Below are positions 1 through 34,667 of a DNA stretch of 64,000 nt, one piece after another; within the stretch, counting starts at the first letter, position 1; each line of letters opens with the position of its first letter. The DNA comes from a virus (taxonomy: Duplodnaviria > Heunggongvirae > Uroviricota > Caudoviricetes), in IMG/VR virus record IMGVR_UViG_3300022750_000190; one strand, given 5' to 3'. Position numbers and translations under genes: made by a program. Below the pieces are notes generated by a model that did no database searches, had not been told where the DNA came from, and saw nothing but the letters and a program-made list of their open reading frames with translations.

Positions 1-258
1 GTTGGTGTTTCAAAAGAAGCTCATGAAGAACTTTCCAAACTGGGTAAAGGCTCTGAAACTATTGCCGAGTTAAGCATCTTTAAATTGGCTAATGGATTGC
101 ATGCTTTTGCTACTTTTGGTGGTCAGTATTGCCTTATTAACACAGAAGATGCAGATACTTGCCGAGATTTCGTTGTTCCTTCAATTGATAATTTTCAATT
201 AATTGATAATACTTCGCCAGAAGGTGCTGTCGAAGCTATTGATGATATGGATGAATAA
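1..258 (+). CDS. 3' end of a gene running off the window start (partial, no start codon in window)
   Basis: Frame 1 is open from nt 1 to a TAA at 256-258 (86 codons). It is not in the ORF track because it has no in-window start. It ends 1 nt before the next ATG. Confidence 0.4.
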   Translation, partial: VGVSKEAHEELSKLGKGSETIAELSIFKLANGLHAFATFGGQYCLINTEDADTCRDFVVPSIDNFQLIDNTSPEGAVEAIDDMDE

Positions 259-259
259 C

Positions 260-1285
260 ATGAGCGATTCACGGAAAGAGAAAACAGCTTTTTTCTTAAT
301 CAAGAAATTTGAAATGCTCTTTCCTGAATTTGAGCATGATCTGAACATTGATGATCTTGTTGATAAACTCGACAAAATAAAATATTGCCAGATATCGGGA
401 CGTATTTTTAGAAGCTCTAACAAGAGTGATATCTATATTGTCCCTATTCTTCCATTTAATCATAAAATGCTTGTTACAATTGAGCGTGTTGCATTCATAT
501 GCAAAGATGCAAAAAGATTTTATCGTAAGATTTTTGAATACATTATTGAAAACCCAAATTCAGAAAATACTGAACAATTTCGTGATATGAAACTTATTTT
601 TAATACTACGAGAAATGTTGCTATCGAAAAAAACAATAATAAAACAAAAAATGAACAATCTGATTTTACAGATGAACCACTTGATTATGAACAGTTAATC
701 GCAAAAGCAAGCATCAAAACCTCAAATGACCTTCGTAGACAAAATTTATCAATCATCAGAAAAGAAATCGAAGAACCTTTTAAATTATTCAACTCTAGGT
801 TTCGGAATATTGAAATAGATGTATTTCCTGAATCTGTTATCAGATTTAAAATCCGAAGATGCCAGCAACGCTCCTTGGACAAAGGACTTTCTTGCAACAT
901 GACGTTTGAAAACACAAAAGATATTTTCTCAGCAACTCATTGCGCATTAACAGGCATGTTATTAGACAAAGGTCCGAATAATTCCGAACCAAAGGTTAAT
1001 ACTTTTTCCATAGACCGAATTAACAGGTTTGAAGGTTACAACATCCATAATATTATGGTTTTGTGCCATGAGGCTAATAAAATAAAAGGCAACCTTGAAA
1101 AAAGAAATTATTCAGAAAGTATTGAACAGATTACCAATATACTTCAAAAAACAAAAAAACTTGTTATTGAGCAACATCAAAGAAATCCAAATTTACAATT
1201 TACTAAAAGTAAAAAAATAAATAAAATTATTTCTGATTATGAATCTAGAAAACAAGAAGACGATAGTTGTCGTTGTGCTTTTTAA
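260..1285 (+). CDS. HNH homing-endonuclease-like protein
   Basis: C-terminal ...NRFEGYNIHNIMVLCHEANKIKGN matches the HNH pattern H-N...LC..CN..KG. ATG at 260 follows the upstream stop; the track ORF begins at TTG 203. Confidence 0.65.
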   Translation: MSDSRKEKTAFFLIKKFEMLFPEFEHDLNIDDLVDKLDKIKYCQISGRIFRSSNKSDIYIVPILPFNHKMLVTIERVAFICKDAKRFYRKIFEYIIENPNSENTEQFRDMKLIFNTTRNVAIEKNNNKTKNEQSDFTDEPLDYEQLIAKASIKTSNDLRRQNLSIIRKEIEEPFKLFNSRFRNIEIDVFPESVIRFKIRRCQQRSLDKGLSCNMTFENTKDIFSATHCALTGMLLDKGPNNSEPKVNTFSIDRINRFEGYNIHNIMVLCHEANKIKGNLEKRNYSESIEQITNILQKTKKLVIEQHQRNPNLQFTKSKKINKIISDYESRKQEDDSCRCAF

Positions 1286-1788: not shown

Positions 1789-1817
1789 TTGACAAGCTTT
1801 GCTTCTCTTAGTAGAAT
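1789..1817 (+). promoter_or_regulatory. sigma70-like promoter TTGACA-17-TAGAAT driving tRNA-Leu
   Basis: TTGACA at 1789-1794, 17-nt spacer, TAGAAT at 1812-1817. An AAAAATAGTTG element lies upstream and recurs at the other tRNA promoters. Confidence 0.6.
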
Positions 1818-2990: not shown

Positions 2991-3053
2991 AAAATATTTT
3001 CTTAATGCTAAATTATAATGCTCCAAGTGTTTGAAAAATAAGTAAAAAAGTTG

Positions 3054-3082
3054 TTGACAAGAGTTTCGAAAGACGTTAAGAT
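3054..3082 (+). promoter_or_regulatory. sigma70-like promoter TTGACA-17-TAAGAT upstream of tRNA-Ser
   Basis: TTGACA at 3054-3059 and TAAGAT at 3077-3082. It shares the upstream element GAAAAATAAGTAAAA-AGTTGTTGACAAG with the promoter at 4521. Confidence 0.55.
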
Positions 3083-3113: not shown

Positions 3114-3201
3114 GGATGAATGGCCGAGTGGTTTAAGGCAGCAGTCTTGAAAACTGCCGGGTGTAACAGCCCCTAGAGTTCGAATCTCTATTCATCCGCC
3201 A
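3114..3201 (+). tRNA. tRNA-Ser(UGA), type II, CCA encoded
   Basis: Acceptor GGAUGAA/UUCAUCC, anticodon stem GCAGU/ACUGC with loop CUUGAAA, long variable arm, T-arm TAGAGTTCGAATCTCTA, G73, CCA. Confidence 0.85.
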
Positions 3202-3205
3202 ATTT

Positions 3206-3291
3206 GGGAAGTAGTTTAGCGGTTAAAACATCAAGACTCCTGCAGGCTGAGTTTTGAAGATGGGACAGTTCGAATCTGTCCTTTCCCACCA
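3206..3291 (+). tRNA. atypical tRNA-like gene (extended anticodon arm; anticodon not assignable)
   Basis: Acceptor GGGAAGU/CUUUCCC, D-arm GTTTAGCGGTTAAAAC, T-arm GACAGTTCGAATCTGTC, A73 and CCA are all tRNA-like. The anticodon region folds as a 9-bp stem UCAAGACUC/GAGUUUUGA with a 9-nt loop CUGCAGGCU. Confidence 0.35.
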
Positions 3292-3428
3292 GTTATGTGG
3301 CTTAGTCAGCGACACACCTAACCAAGAGGCTTAAGACTCTAATTAGTGGTGGTCAGGATTGTTTACGCTGGCAAACTCCTTTAGCGGGGAGATCTGAGGG
3401 TTCGAGACCCTATGGCTGCGTCGAAAAT
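3292..3428 (+). other. unassigned structured segment with an orphan T-arm-like motif (GGGTTCGAGACCC)
   Basis: T-arm-like hairpin at about 3396-3413. No complementary acceptor 5' strand was found by hand within 130 nt. Confidence 0.2.
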
Positions 3429-3505
3429 TGGTATACGGCTCTGGTGAAGAGTGTGAATCGGTCACTTAATCATGTATGTAGGTTCGAGTCCTACTATACC
3501 AGCCA
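3429..3505 (+). tRNA. tRNA-like gene, 77 nt, CCA encoded; anticodon arm could not be folded by hand
   Basis: Perfect acceptor UGGUAUA/UAUACCA, D-arm GCTC-TGGTGAA-GAGT, T-arm GTAGGTTCGAGTCCTAC, G73 and CCA. The 24-nt middle gives no canonical 5-bp stem with a 7-nt loop. Confidence 0.4.
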
Positions 3506-3604
3506 GTTTTAAATGAGATGGCGGTTCAATGCCGCTTCTGGCTCTTGCAAGTTCCGGCTGGGGTTGGTAGTATAATTTGGTAATTACGCATTTAAAACAT
3601 TTTT

Positions 3605-3681
3605 GCGTCCGTAGCTCAGTTGGATAGAGCATCCGCCTTCTAAGCGGATGGCCACTGGTTCGAGTCCAGTCGGACGCACCA
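3605..3681 (+). tRNA. tRNA-Arg(UCU), CCA encoded (copy 1 of 2)
   Basis: Acceptor GCGUCCG/CGGACGC, D-arm GCTCAGTTGGATAGAGC, anticodon stem UCCGC/GCGGA with loop CUUCUAA, T-arm ACTGGTTCGAGTCCAGT, A73, CCA. Confidence 0.85.
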
Positions 3682-3710
3682 AATCTAAAATGAAGCTTTC
3701 ATAGATTATT

Positions 3711-4243
3711 TTAGACGAGTCCTTCGGGACGCTGCATTATCGTCACAAGTGTTATCCAATATGGCAACTTCTATTGGATGAACGACGATATTGTAGGTTG
3801 GAAGTTGCAAAATTCAGGATTTAAAGAACGGTAAAACCAATGCTGATATAGGTTGGTTTTGGGCTAGTCCTTCGGGGCGCTGCATTATCGCCCAAGCGTC
3901 AATCAATATGGCAACTTCTATTGATTGAACGACGATAGTGCAGTTTTGAAGTTGTGATTTTTGTTCCAAAATACGATAGAACTATGTTTTATCCAATCCT
4001 TCGGGGTGCTTAAATATTGTCAAAGTGTCAAATAACATGGCAACTTCTGTTATATGAACGATGATATTTCGGTTTGGGAGTTGCAAGATTTGATGTTGTA
4101 AAGAACGGTAAAGGCAGTGCTGATATAGACTGACTTTGGGCTAGTCCTTCGGGGCGCTGTTACAATGCCGGTGTGTCAATCAGTATGGTGTCTTCTGTTG
4201 ATTGAATGACGTTGCTAACAGTTAGGGAAGACACATTTTTTTT
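3711..4243 (+). ncRNA. tandem array of four homologous structured RNA elements of about 140 nt, organised as a duplicated dimer, ending in an intrinsic terminator
   Basis: Units begin near 3717, 3867, 3996 and 4144, each with a UUCG-capped hairpin GUCC-UUCG-GGAC. They share a long-range helix (GCUGCAUUAUCG...CGACGAUAUUG) and an internal hairpin. The 19-mer CTAGTCCTTCGGGGCGCTG is identical at 3863 and 4141. Compensatory changes keep pairing (GCAACUUC/GAAGUUGC in units 1-3 versus GUGUCUUC/GAAGACAC in unit 4). U8 tract at 4236-4243. Confidence 0.5.
4187..4243 (+). terminator. intrinsic terminator closing the structured-RNA array
   Basis: Stem GTGTCTTC...GAAGACAC with a nested CTGTT/AACAG hairpin, followed by TTTTTTTT. 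Confidence 0.5.
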
Positions 4244-4275
4244 GTTACATTATTTTGTCACGAAGAGAGGTTATT

Positions 4276-4485
4276 ATGTCATTAGTTGAATTTGGTTTGA
4301 ATACAGGTTTTAATTATCGTCTTCAAAAAGATGCTGATGCTATTAATGATAAATACAATAACAAAATCAAAAACACTTCTTTTCGTGGTGAAATTGTAAA
4401 ACTTGATACACAAAGGCGTGATGAATTAAGCAAATTGCATACTTCACATGGCAAAAAATATCAAGGTAGGGGATTCATCGAATAA
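4276..4485 (+). CDS. hypothetical small protein
   Basis: ATG at 4276 preceded by AAGAGAGG 6 nt upstream. The track ORF starts at TTG 4255. Confidence 0.45.
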   Translation: MSLVEFGLNTGFNYRLQKDADAINDKYNNKIKNTSFRGEIVKLDTQRRDELSKLHTSHGKKYQGRGFIE

Positions 4486-4520
4486 TGCTTCAAACGATTG
4501 AAAAATAAGTAAAATAGTTG

Positions 4521-4549
4521 TTGACAAGGGTGTTGCAGGACGATAGAAT
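4521..4549 (+). promoter_or_regulatory. sigma70-like promoter TTGACA-17-TAGAAT for tRNA-Leu copy 2
   Basis: TTGACA at 4521-4526 and TAGAAT at 4544-4549. The leader TAGTCACACAAAG is shared with the copies at 1819 and 30500. Confidence 0.6.
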
Positions 4550-4580
4550 AGTCACACAAAGCGAGAAGATACAAAGCAAT

Positions 4581-4665
4581 GCCCGGTTGGTGAAATTGGT
4601 AGACACATGAGACTTAAAATCTCCCGCCGAAGGGTGTGCCGGTTCGAGTCCGGCACCGGGCACCA
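4581..4665 (+). tRNA. tRNA-Leu(UAA), copy 2 (identical to 1853-1937)
   Basis: Sequence identical to copy 1. Confidence 0.85.
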
Positions 4666-4678
4666 AATGTTGTAAAAT

Positions 4679-4762
4679 GCGTATGTGGTGGAATGGCATA
4701 CACGCTAGTCTAAGAAGCTAGTGCCGAAAGGCTTGTGGGTTCGAGTCCCATTGTACGCACCA
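4679..4762 (+). tRNA. type-II tRNA, Leu-like; anticodon reads AAG in the hand fold
   Basis: Acceptor GCGUAUG/UGUACGC (two GU pairs), anticodon stem CUAGU/GCUAG with loop CUAAGAA, 13-nt variable arm UGCCGAAAGGCUU, T-arm GTGGGTTCGAGTCCCAT, A73, CCA. A34 is unusual, so the assignment is tentative. Confidence 0.55.
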
Positions 4763-4770
4763 GAAAAAGA

Positions 4771-4799
4771 TTGACGTGATAGTTTGAATGTTGTATAAT
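4771..4799 (+). promoter_or_regulatory. sigma70-like promoter TTGACG-17-TATAAT upstream of tRNA-like RNA A
   Basis: TTGACG at 4771-4776 and TATAAT at 4794-4799. Confidence 0.6.
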
Positions 4800-4819
4800 T
4801 ATCACATATTACAGAATAT

Positions 4820-4989
4820 GGGTACTACCCAACTGGATCATTTGGCGTTGTCATACGTGCAGACAACAATATATGTGTAAGTGGGGGTTAAGCGAGATAT
4901 TAGTATTTATTGTTGGATGAGACCGCACGTACTCGGAAAGCTTTAAAGAAAGTAGTAGCTTGTTGGTTCGATTCCATCAGTATCCGCCA
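4820..4989 (+). ncRNA. tRNA-like structured RNA A, about 170 nt, with tRNA acceptor stem, T-arm and CCA (insert-containing tRNA or stable RNA)
   Basis: 5' GGGUACU pairs with 3' AGUAUCC, followed by G73 and CCA. T-arm GTTGGTTCGATTCCATC, D-arm-like CCAA-CTGGATCAT-TTGG, and a 6-bp hairpin GUUGUC-AUACGUGCA-GACAAC. Homologous to 10644-10808. Confidence 0.5.
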
Positions 4990-5001
4990 GACGTTTAAAA
5001 T

Positions 5002-5078
5002 GGGCCTTTAGCTCAGTTGGTCAGAGCACTCGACTCATAATCGATTGGTCGTAGGTTCAAGTCCTACAAGGCCCACCA
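5002..5078 (+). tRNA. tRNA with CAU anticodon (third species), CCA encoded
   Basis: Acceptor GGGCCUU/AAGGCCC, U8, D-arm GCTCAGTTGGTCAGAGC, anticodon loop CUCAUAA, T-arm GTAGGTTCAAGTCCTAC. Confidence 0.8.
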
Positions 5079-5151
5079 TTTTAAAGAATACGGGAATTGA
5101 ACTGTAAAGGTTCAAGATGATCTAGCGTAGGATAGGGGCGACGATCAAAAT

Positions 5152-5236
5152 GCAAGTGTAAAGGTGCGGTAGTGTAGCCTCTGGCAGCGACGGCATCAAG
5201 TTGGTTACGGTGGTTCGAATCCATCTTCTTGCACCA
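5152..5236 (+). tRNA. tRNA-like gene of about 85 nt with canonical T-arm and CCA; 5' half not resolvable by hand
   Basis: T-arm GGTGGTTCGAATCCATC, then UUCUUGC-A-CCA. The best 5' partner, GCAAGUG, pairs at 5-6 positions. The internal GGTAGTGTAGCC looks like a D-arm. Confidence 0.3.
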
Positions 5237-5290
5237 ATGTTGTGGCGGCTTATGCCCAAACCTACTGTAAAATGGCAAAATAAGCAATAT

Positions 5291-5379
5291 GGGGAGGTAG
5301 CTCAGTTGGTCAGAGCGAATAACATAGATTCTAGAGTCTCGTTATGATGTCGGTGGTTCGAATCCACCCCTCCCCACCA
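5291..5379 (+). tRNA. atypical tRNA-like gene, 89 nt, with a perfect tRNA frame but a 17-nt insertion in the anticodon arm
   Basis: Acceptor GGGGAGG/CCUCCCC, U8, D-arm GCTCAGTTGGTCAGAGC, T-arm GGTGGTTCGAATCCACC, A73, CCA. Anticodon stem AUAAC/GUUAU encloses AUAGAUUCUAGAGUCUC. Confidence 0.4.
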
Positions 5380-33671: not shown

Positions 33672-34667
33672 ATGGCAATAATTCTAACAGGCGATAGACC
33701 AACAGGTTCCCTTCATTTAGGGCATTATATCGGCTCGCTTCGAAATCGTGTGGCGTTGCAACACGAACACACTCAATATCTGTTAATTGCCGATAATCAA
33801 GCATTAACAGATAACATGGGAAATCCCATGAAAGTTCGTGATAATATCATTGAAGTTGCAAAAGACTACCTTGCTTCTGGCATTGAACCAACTAAAACAA
33901 CTATTGCTATTCAATCTTTGCTCCCTGCAATTGCTGAATTAACTCTTTTGTATATGAACTTTGTTACTGTTTCTCGTTTAGAACGAAACCCAACAATTCG
34001 TGATGAAATCAAGTCAAGAAACTTTGGTCGTGATATTCCAGCAGGGTTCCTTGCTTATCCTGTTGCACAAGCAGCCGATATAACAGCATTTAAAGCCTCT
34101 TTAGTGCCTGTTGGTGAAGATCAAGCTCCATTGATTGAACAAGCTAACGAAGTTGTTAAAAAGGTTAACAGACAAGCTGAAAAAGAAATTCTTCCCGAAA
34201 TTACTGCTTTGATTCCAACCATTGGTAGACTTCCAAGTCTTGATGGGAAATCAAAAATGAGTAAATCTTTAGGTAATACAATCAATCTTTATTCCAGTAA
34301 TGACGAAATTACCAAAGCTGTTCGAGCTATGTTTACTGACCCAACTCATATTAAAGTATCAGATCCGGGGAAAGTTGATGGCAACGTAGTATTTACTTAC
34401 TTAGACGCTTTTGATACGAATCTTGAAGAACTTAATGCTTTGAAAGAACATTATATTCGTGGTGGACTTGGCGATTCCGTTATCAAGAAAAGGCTAACAG
34501 AGATCTTAATTGAAACATTAACTCCTATTCGTGAAAAAAGACTTCAATTGAATAATGAACACGAATATGTTCTTAGTGTATTAAAACAAGGGACAGACAT
34601 TGCAAGAGAAGTAACTCAAACCAATTTAAATGAAATCAAAAGACATTTAAATATGTTTTCTTTTTGA
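33672..34667 (+). CDS. trpS: tryptophanyl-tRNA synthetase
   Basis: HIGH-type motif TGDRPTGSLHLGHY, VPVGEDQ, YPVAQAADI and KMSKS, collinear with bacterial TrpRS. 331 aa. Confidence 0.85.
   Translation: MAIILTGDRPTGSLHLGHYIGSLRNRVALQHEHTQYLLIADNQALTDNMGNPMKVRDNIIEVAKDYLASGIEPTKTTIAIQSLLPAIAELTLLYMNFVTVSRLERNPTIRDEIKSRNFGRDIPAGFLAYPVAQAADITAFKASLVPVGEDQAPLIEQANEVVKKVNRQAEKEILPEITALIPTIGRLPSLDGKSKMSKSLGNTINLYSSNDEITKAVRAMFTDPTHIKVSDPGKVDGNVVFTYLDAFDTNLEELNALKEHYIRGGLGDSVIKKRLTEILIETLTPIREKRLQLNNEHEYVLSVLKQGTDIAREVTQTNLNEIKRHLNMFSF

Follow-up and report, generated by a model that had tools for sequence, protein, structure and literature searches.

Four tandem RNA units with a predicted pseudoknotted fold in the tRNA island of a putative giant phage

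Introduction

What are the four repeats that follow the tRNA-Arg gene in the tRNA island of an uncultivated virus of the Caudoviricetes, and what might they do? They occupy positions 3711-4243 of a 64,000-nt stretch of IMG/VR record IMGVR_UViG_3300022750_000190, the whole of which we call the window. A sequence-only reading had taken them for a 2x2 array of structured RNA elements, possibly the counterpart of the 'species 1/2' stable RNAs of phage T4 or else a new regulatory or ribozyme-like family. The question reaches beyond this locus: phage tRNA islands repeatedly hold abundant structured RNAs of unsolved role (T4 RNA C/D, GOLLD, ROOL), and the array joins them as a small RNA whose fold is well defined. 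RNAs C and D of T4 were described decades ago. Their roles are still unknown (PMC3014915; PMC12685909), as is the function of GOLLD and ROOL, phage RNAs found near tRNA islands that self-assemble via intermolecular contacts (PMC12286853).

Here we describe the layout, fold, conservation and setting of the array. We are highly confident that it encodes a genuine family of pseudoknotted non-coding RNAs on the + strand. As to function, the reading that we favour, at a probability of roughly 0.55 for the statement as a whole, is that four tandem pseudoknotted RNA domains work as an abundant decoy or scaffold acting in trans.

Results and discussion

A duplicated dimer of four homologous units

A repeat search returned one family, made of four 96-nt direct copies that start at 3721, 3868, 3997 and 4145 (spacing 147, 129 and 148 nt). 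The motif TCCTTCGGG-N-ATGGNNNCTTCT-N-TGAA has exactly four matches in the 64 kb, all of them in the array, where shuffled sequences give an expectation of 0. Both results bear out the four homologous units that had been placed near 3717, 3867, 3996 and 4144. The repeat array itself thus stands, but the unit length of about 140 nt does not, since the conserved core spans ~96 nt and the remainder is linker. On the + strand the cores lie at 3716-3812, 3864-3959, 3993-4088 and 4141-4235 (start-to-start distances of 148, 129 and 148 nt); they are 60-80% identical to one another and score 100.2, 109.1, 96.1 and 88.8 bits, respectively, with R1, a covariance model built from the units. R1 finds no further copy in the window, and likewise four units only in each sister strain.

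The array follows a simple plan, in which a long unit (core plus a linker of ~52 nt) is followed by a short one and the pair is duplicated. A second-order repeat of 122 nt (3813-3934 vs 4090-4211, 78% identity) supports the duplicated dimer proposed earlier. Units 2 and 4 do share an identical word, as had been noted, but its true length is 25 nt (3858-3882 and 4135-4159) and not 19.

A common fold with a loop-to-tail pseudoknot

Each unit is predicted to open with P1, a 4-bp hairpin with a UUCG loop (3719-3722/3727-3730 in unit 1). It is followed by P2, a helix of 13 bp (3732-3744/3784-3796), which in the RNAalifold fold is preceded by a G.U pair that abuts P1. P2 encloses P3, a hairpin of 10-12 bp (3749-3761/3772-3783), and the P2-P3 junction carries a purine-rich bulge of 3-4 nt on the 5' strand only. 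The apical loop of P3, L3, has 10 nt (UGGCAACUUC, 3762-3771), eight of which pair with the 3' tail: in unit 1, GCAACUUC (3764-3771) would form an 8-bp pseudoknot with GAAGUUGC (3801-3808). The same elements are placed in unit 2 (P1 3867-3870/3875-3878; P2 3880-3892/3931-3943; P3 3896-3908/3919-3930; L3 3909-3918; pseudoknot 3911-3918/3948-3955), in unit 3 (P1 3996-3999/4004-4007; P2 4009-4021/4060-4072; P3 4025-4037/4048-4059; L3 4038-4047; pseudoknot 4040-4047/4077-4084) and in unit 4 (P1 4144-4147/4152-4155; P2 4157-4169/4208-4221; P3 4173-4185/4196-4207; L3 4186-4195). The pseudoknot of unit 4 has an altered specificity, with GUGUCUUC (4188-4195) pairing with GAAGACAC (4227-4234). P1, P2 and P3 correspond to the UUCG hairpin, the long-range helix and the internal hairpin of the sequence-only reading, all of which are present. 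It had also pointed to the substitution of GCAACUUC/GAAGUUGC by GUGUCUUC/GAAGACAC; this pairing is indeed compensated, but the helix is not a nested one and joins the P3 loop to the 3' tail. The loop motifs UCCUUCGGG, AUGG, CUUCU and UGAAYGA are strongly conserved, and L3 opens with an invariant UGG.

The geometry of this fold is constrained. The tail starts 3-5 nt beyond the base of P2, so that a pseudoknot in cis would form only if P2 folds back alongside P3: stacked end to end, P2 and P3 make ~25 bp or roughly 70 Å, which a linker of 3-5 nt is too short to span. P2 keeps its 13 bp and P3 its 12 bp in 11/11 units, and these near-equal lengths, together with a one-sided bulge as the hinge, would fit a P2 folded back beside P3. 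The unit would then consist of two parallel coaxial stacks lying side by side, P1/P2 and P3/pseudoknot.

Several other signals were considered and set aside. Every unit contains a mini open reading frame (ORF; 3762-3782 in unit 1 and the equivalent positions elsewhere), with an AUG in L3, five codons and a UGA (UAA in unit 1 of strain L007), giving the peptides MATSIG, MATSID, MATSVI and MVSSVD. We reject a coding role for it: it has no Shine-Dalgarno sequence, residues 5-6 vary, and changes in the 'codons' are matched by changes in the tail. The frame probably arises as a side effect of the RNA structure. Mimicry of an anticodon loop (CUUCU(A) of L3 equals C32-A37 of tRNA-Arg(UCU)) was judged unconvincing, since the fold engages these bases in pseudoknot pairing and a match of 5-6 nt carries no significance. 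Nor does the P2/P3 junction qualify as a K-turn, because its sequence departs from the general consensus of that motif.

The linkers are structured in part. A 9-bp hairpin, P4, with a conserved loop GCUGAUAUAG, is placed at 3833-3860 and again at 4110-4137 (both +); 90% of its cells are paired and 2 pairs are double-changed between linkers 1 and 3, a modest support. By alignment, linker 2 (3960-3992, +) is a shortened form of linkers 1 and 3, and it is 97% identical in the sister strain L003. Between tRNA-Arg and unit 1, the sequence and the minimum free energy fold of the array also suggest, on weak evidence, an AU-rich leader hairpin (UCUAAAAU...AUUUUAGA, 3684-3715, +; 91% identity in L003).

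Covariation and strand

The fold was assessed on an alignment of 11 distinct units, to which the window and strain L003 each contribute four and strain L007 three. Standard pairs fill 94.3% of its 407 cells, compared with 30-50% after the 3' partners have been shifted by 1-3 columns, and 14 of the 37 pairs are changed on both sides, in agreement with the covariation claimed earlier. None of 500 shuffles reaches the observed covariation score, and RNAalifold recovers P1, P2 and P3 when the drawn model is not given as input. The pseudoknot is paired in 88/88 cells, and in the unit 4 lineage three neighbouring pairs have changed together on both sides; this reads as one evolutionary event, yet one that needs six coordinated substitutions. 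Unit 1 of L003 is only 73% identical to its counterpart in the window and its P2 and P3 are largely rewritten, but all helices still form; its sequence suggests a chimera between units 1 and 4.

G.U cells outnumber A.C cells by 51 to 15 in this alignment, which places the folded RNA on the + strand, the strand of the tRNAs. This also bears on whether the repeats act as DNA, for instance as origin iterons or as recombination or packaging sites. Four direct repeats in an intergenic region would suit such a role, but the pairing is strand-specific, the variation tracks RNA helices rather than a protein-binding consensus, and units of ~100-150 bp are far above iteron size, so that we regard a DNA-level element as highly improbable. 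The ORFs that overlap the array are tiny (34-51 aa) and on the minus strand, and the units differ by 1-nt indels, as expected from the earlier claim that the array is non-coding. Compensated helices, a single folded strand and the lack of a coding signal, all three seen here, are together what generally marks a structured non-coding RNA.

Conservation between strains

Compared with L003, nucleotide identity is 98-100% for the tRNAs, 99% for unit 2, 98% for unit 3, 93% for unit 4, 96-100% for the three linkers and 82-93% for the flanking ORFs; unit 1 excepted, the array is 93-100% identical. This identity, at the level of the tRNAs and above that of the ORFs, indicates that the array evolves like a structural RNA and not like a spacer. 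All 6/6 array-bearing contigs, from at least six samples, carry four units.

These numbers weigh directly on the idea of neutral or decaying repeats, such as duplicated junk of tRNA origin or trailer sequence. The 5' end of unit 1 (3716-3732, CGAGTCCTTCGGGACGC) does resemble the 3' end of tRNA-Arg (3661-3677, CGAGTCCAGTCGGACGC) over a 17-mer with 76% identity, and the family is confined to one lineage, as such an origin would have it. Against this, the array is as similar between strains as the tRNAs are and more so than the ORFs, and all four helices are maintained by compensatory substitutions even where units have fallen to 60% identity. This view was already disfavoured on these grounds, and we consider it very unlikely. 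In a separate observation, the 16 nt 5' of unit 1 (3697-3712) resemble the 16 nt 3' of unit 4 (4241-4256) with 81% identity; this likeness and that to tRNA-Arg may reflect the origin of the array, or may be due to chance.

Searches for relatives and for known RNA families

We searched the window with Rfam 15 (4227 models, including tRNA, tmRNA, riboswitches, ribozymes, GOLLD, ROOL, Y RNA and T-box), and only tRNAs reach the gathering score. At E<=10 over 3200-5300, the array obtains one chance-level match (sR4 snoRNA, with 14.4 bits where the gathering score is 50). The sequence-only reading had allowed for a new family, and the Rfam search, one of the checks it proposed, is in keeping with this even at this threshold. 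Neither ARAGORN nor the Rfam tRNA model calls the units as tRNAs, and they contain no T-loop motif.

The same search addresses whether the units are self-cleaving ribozymes, or processing modules that would cut the tRNA precursor or the array to unit length. Small self-cleaving ribozymes are known to reside in phage tRNA regions, and the units are pseudoknotted, tandem and have invariant junction nucleotides. However, no Rfam ribozyme family (hammerhead, twister, twister-sister, pistol, hatchet, HDV-like or hairpin) matches at E<=10, we could map the fold to no known ribozyme architecture, and neither a catalytic-core signature nor a conserved candidate cleavage site is apparent. The ribozyme-like character suggested earlier is thus not supported, and we judge this explanation quite unlikely.

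Relatives were sought more widely. The strict motif pattern has one match in IMG/VR, a chance one within a tail-fibre gene. A looser pattern gives 29 matches in JGI metagenomes, 19 in GTDB genomes and 0 in IMG/VR, for a chance expectation of roughly 25-30 estimated beforehand; all are single matches and none passes R1. Two more IMG/VR patterns, with L3 or P1 left free, give 15 and 42 chance matches, again with none passing R1, and blastn of the array against 50,697 GenBank phage records returns nothing significant. Searching through neighbouring genes, the ORF downstream of the array (69 aa) leads only to the sister strains, and neither this ORF nor a 94-aa ORF further upstream has relatives in IMG/VR. 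Distant relatives reached through a 107-aa ORF and an HNH-like ORF (contigs to 1.06 Mb) carry no tRNAs and no array in the 10-kb flanks. As far as these sequence searches reach, the family is new and so far confined to one lineage.

Transcription unit and the downstream ORF

A strong sigma-70-type promoter (TTGACA-17-TAAGAT, a 10/12 match in the promoter scan) lies at 3054-3082 on the + strand. Between 3082 and 4236, a scan of this strand for promoters and terminators finds no stronger promoter and no terminator-like site. The array thus lies between this promoter, followed by at least five tRNA or tRNA-like genes, and a T8 tract. The simplest view is that it forms the 3' portion of a ~1.2-kb transcript, which would also carry tRNA-Ser, tRNA-Arg(UCU) and two or three aberrant tRNA-like genes; the promoter most likely drives the tRNA-Ser to tRNA-Arg genes and the array together. 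That the array belongs to the tRNA transcription unit, as first proposed, agrees with its place on the same + strand, 3' of tRNA-Arg and downstream of this promoter. The next strong + promoter, at 4521-4549, is near-identical to the 3054-3082 block. We also observed that a promoter cassette block, GAAAAATAAGTAAAAnnGTTGTTGACAAG, with TTGACA-17-TAAGAT/TAGAAT, occurs at 3036-3082 and 4501-4549, and also at 1789-1817 (+), heading successive tRNA sub-operons.

The T8 tract (4236-4243, +; U8 in the RNA) lies one base past the 3' strand of the unit 4 pseudoknot, directly abuts the tail in L003, and is a probable transcription stop. The U8 of the terminator described earlier is therefore present, but the terminator scan finds no canonical hairpin (3-8-nt loop) ahead of it. 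The only helix that ends at the U8 is the loop-tail helix of unit 4 (8-10 bp, with 31 nt between its strands), which may act as the terminator stem and would be a candidate case of a pseudoknot helix in this role. A degenerate U5 run follows unit 2, the other short unit, which fits an ancestral gene made of a dimer plus a terminator that was later duplicated.

Downstream of the U8, a 69-aa ORF (4276-4485, +) with a ribosome binding site (RBS; GAGAGG) and no promoter of its own is linked to the array in all strains. It has no match in Pfam, PHROGs or PADLOC, and compared with L003 it shows 86.8% nucleotide identity and 13 gap positions, with a frameshifted N-terminus in L003. An ORF that is less conserved than the array, frameshifted and without a family argues against the array being a mere leader of this gene.

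Such a leader could nevertheless work as a cis attenuator, in which the units would sense a signal and the unit 4 helix beside the U8 would control read-through into the 69-aa ORF. Several features would suit it: the ORF has an RBS and no promoter within 4243-4276, the sole helix abutting the U8 is the unit 4 pseudoknot, and unit 4 has its own loop-tail specificity. The invariant UGG that opens L3 also recalls the UGGN of T-boxes, which pairs with the NCCA ends of tRNAs. The topology is shared with HLout pseudoknot aptamers, such as riboswitches of the preQ1-II type that overlap an expression platform: the loop capping a hairpin pairs with a tail further 3', and in unit 4 this helix abuts a U-tract. 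However, no Rfam T-box or other riboswitch model matches, the gene that would be regulated is not conserved, and units 1-3 are without an expression platform. The array is also better conserved (93-100%) than the ORF it would regulate, and four aptamers ending a tRNA operon would be unprecedented. We therefore hold an attenuator or riboswitch-like leader to be unlikely.

The order of repeats, U-tract and ORF with an RBS also invites comparison with type III toxin-antitoxin systems, where a pseudoknot-forming antitoxin RNA is encoded by tandem direct repeats. In ToxIN, these ToxI repeats are followed by a terminator and the toxin gene. Repeats of this kind are near-identical and short, at about 34-40 nt (36 nt in ToxI), whereas the units here measure 129-148 nt and their cores are 60-80% identical. 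In addition, the array sits inside a tRNA operon, and the 69-aa ORF carries a frameshift in sister strains and fits neither ToxN nor AbiQ nor any other PADLOC model. An antitoxin array of this type is thus scarcely credible, and we place it level with the DNA-level element, below the attenuator, ribozymes or processing modules, and neutral repeats, in this order.

Comparison with other phage RNAs

The T4 annotation places rnaD (119 nt) and then rnaC (139 nt) after tRNA-Arg, at the end of the tRNA cluster. The array shares this position, directly 3' of tRNA-Arg and on the tRNA strand, as the proposed link to the 'species 1/2' RNAs would have it. Similarity was not detectable: with filters off on the T4 tRNA region, the best overlap of R1 with rnaC/rnaD scores 4.3-4.7 bits at E>5. 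In addition, rnaC ends in a tRNA-like T-arm and acceptor, which the units lack, and the units form a loop-to-tail pseudoknot and come in four copies where T4 has two RNAs. Scores of at most 4.7 bits and the tRNA-like end of rnaC lead us to reject homology, and leave the T4 RNAs as analogues at best and not counterparts by descent.

GOLLD and ROOL resemble the array in being phage- or prophage-encoded, pseudoknot-rich, non-coding, abundant and typically located beside tRNA islands. They differ in being 5-8 times larger and single-copy, their Rfam models do not match here, and oligomers, known for them, would be hypothetical for the units. The packaging RNA (pRNA) of phi29 offers another parallel, as a small phage RNA with two covarying complementary segments in one molecule. 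These segments pair between molecules and so build a ring. The fold and genomic context of the phi29 pRNA are unrelated to those of the units, for which intermolecular pairing is only a possibility.

A possible trans-acting decoy or scaffold

How might such an array function? In the reading that we favour, it would be transcribed as the 3' portion of a tRNA precursor, with the unit 4 loop-tail helix and the U8 serving as terminator. The units would then accumulate as nuclease-resistant RNAs, shielded by the 5' hairpin and the 3' pseudoknot, and would act in trans and stoichiometrically, binding a partner, perhaps a host RNA-binding or tRNA-directed factor, for which they would serve as decoy or scaffold. 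They would thus be functional analogues of T4 RNA C/D and of other RNAs of phage tRNA islands. An abundant RNA that binds a partner in trans is favoured by the four copies, the tRNA-like conservation that includes the linkers, the invariant single-stranded motifs, the exonuclease-resistant ends predicted by the fold and the likely co-expression with tRNAs. These features would fit a cis regulator or a catalyst less well.

A number of points weigh against this reading. We infer that a transcript is made, where it ends, how stable it is and that it stops at the U8, and the decoy or scaffold role is argued from copy number, conservation and context. The family is found in a single lineage with three strain-level variants, so that, with gene conversion between units, many of the seemingly independent compensatory changes may trace back to few events; the covariation of the pseudoknot comes from the single block change in unit 4. 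Folded alone, units 3 and 4 do no better than shuffled sequence (z = +0.24 and -0.21), and the fold of the whole array is uninformative because similar units cross-pair. Finally, loop and tail may pair between molecules or units, instead of in cis or in addition to it, and the sequence fits both arrangements.

Pairing between molecules or units opens a different view, in which the units would assemble into RNA-only oligomers with unit 4 providing an orthogonal 'address'; a variant would have the array act as a high-copy RNA sponge for a host immune or tRNA-directed factor or for a signalling nucleotide. We regard these possibilities as doubtful. If the oligomers proved true, they would be a miniature, modular counterpart of the GOLLD and ROOL cages, and either form would define a new class of phage counter-defence or architectural RNA.

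Whichever role applies, the array contains a natural experiment, with four diverged copies of which one has swapped its pseudoknot specificity. A size of ~96 nt makes the unit easy to synthesise, probe and image, so that it could be a tractable handle on tRNA-linked RNAs. Its value is limited by its occurrence in one uncultivated giant-phage lineage and by a functional case built on sequence.

The window and its tRNA island

The window is part of a 604,209-bp ENA metagenome contig (ERZ27228643 k141_1005676). It has a GC content of ~32%, numerous small ORFs and at least 14 tRNA genes (ARAGORN), and encodes a tryptophanyl-tRNA synthetase (33672-34667) and a thymidylate synthase. These features suggest a giant-phage-like element, and the structural conclusions are independent of this assignment. 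Homologues of the 107-aa ORF (2276-2599), with 63-70% aa identity, are found on contigs of 876,603, 809,879 and 1,059,787 bp, the gene content of which looks phage-like (NrdD, SspB, RtcB, a phage ProQ-like protein and many small ORFs). If these are phages, all three would exceed the largest phage genome that we know of, at about 735 kb. On a related giant contig, the RtcB RNA ligase adjoins the homologue of a window ORF, a hint of unusual tRNA processing or repair.

tRNA-Arg(UCU) (3605-3681, +; ARAGORN, and 74.3 bits with the Rfam tRNA model) is the last canonical tRNA upstream of the array. Several genes of the island (all +) are tRNAs or tRNA-like, with oversized anticodon arms or loops or with extra arms, and are 98-100% identical across strains: 3205-3288 (9-bp anticodon stem and 9-nt loop), 3290-3428 (a 140-nt tRNA-like gene with a T-arm), 5152-5233, and 5291-5379 (an 89-nt 'tRNA-Met' with a 17-nt loop insert). 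Beyond the array, 4820-4988 (+) encodes a tRNA-like RNA of ~170 nt that is called by neither ARAGORN nor Rfam. Its acceptor stem, GGGUACU/AGUAUCC, contains a G3.U70 wobble; the RNA further has a T-arm GGUUCGAUUCC, a GCCA 3' end and a large insert of ~100 nt, and may be tmRNA-like or T4 species-1-like; the stretch that contains it (4763-5001) is 97.9% identical to L003, a tRNA-level conservation.

The island varies in content between strains. The window strain has the 94-aa ORF (2706-2990, +), located between tRNA-Met and the promoter, whereas L003 lacks it (281 gap positions) and also lacks the tRNA at 3429-3502. These gains or losses indicate that the island is in indel flux, the array being constant at four units. 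Immediately 5' of the island, an ORF at 203-1285 (+) is HNH/endonuclease VII-like (PHROG 3118, 3322 and 1035) and shows weak similarity to a 'decoy of host sigma70' family; it recalls the homing endonuclease gene segB within the T4 tRNA cluster.

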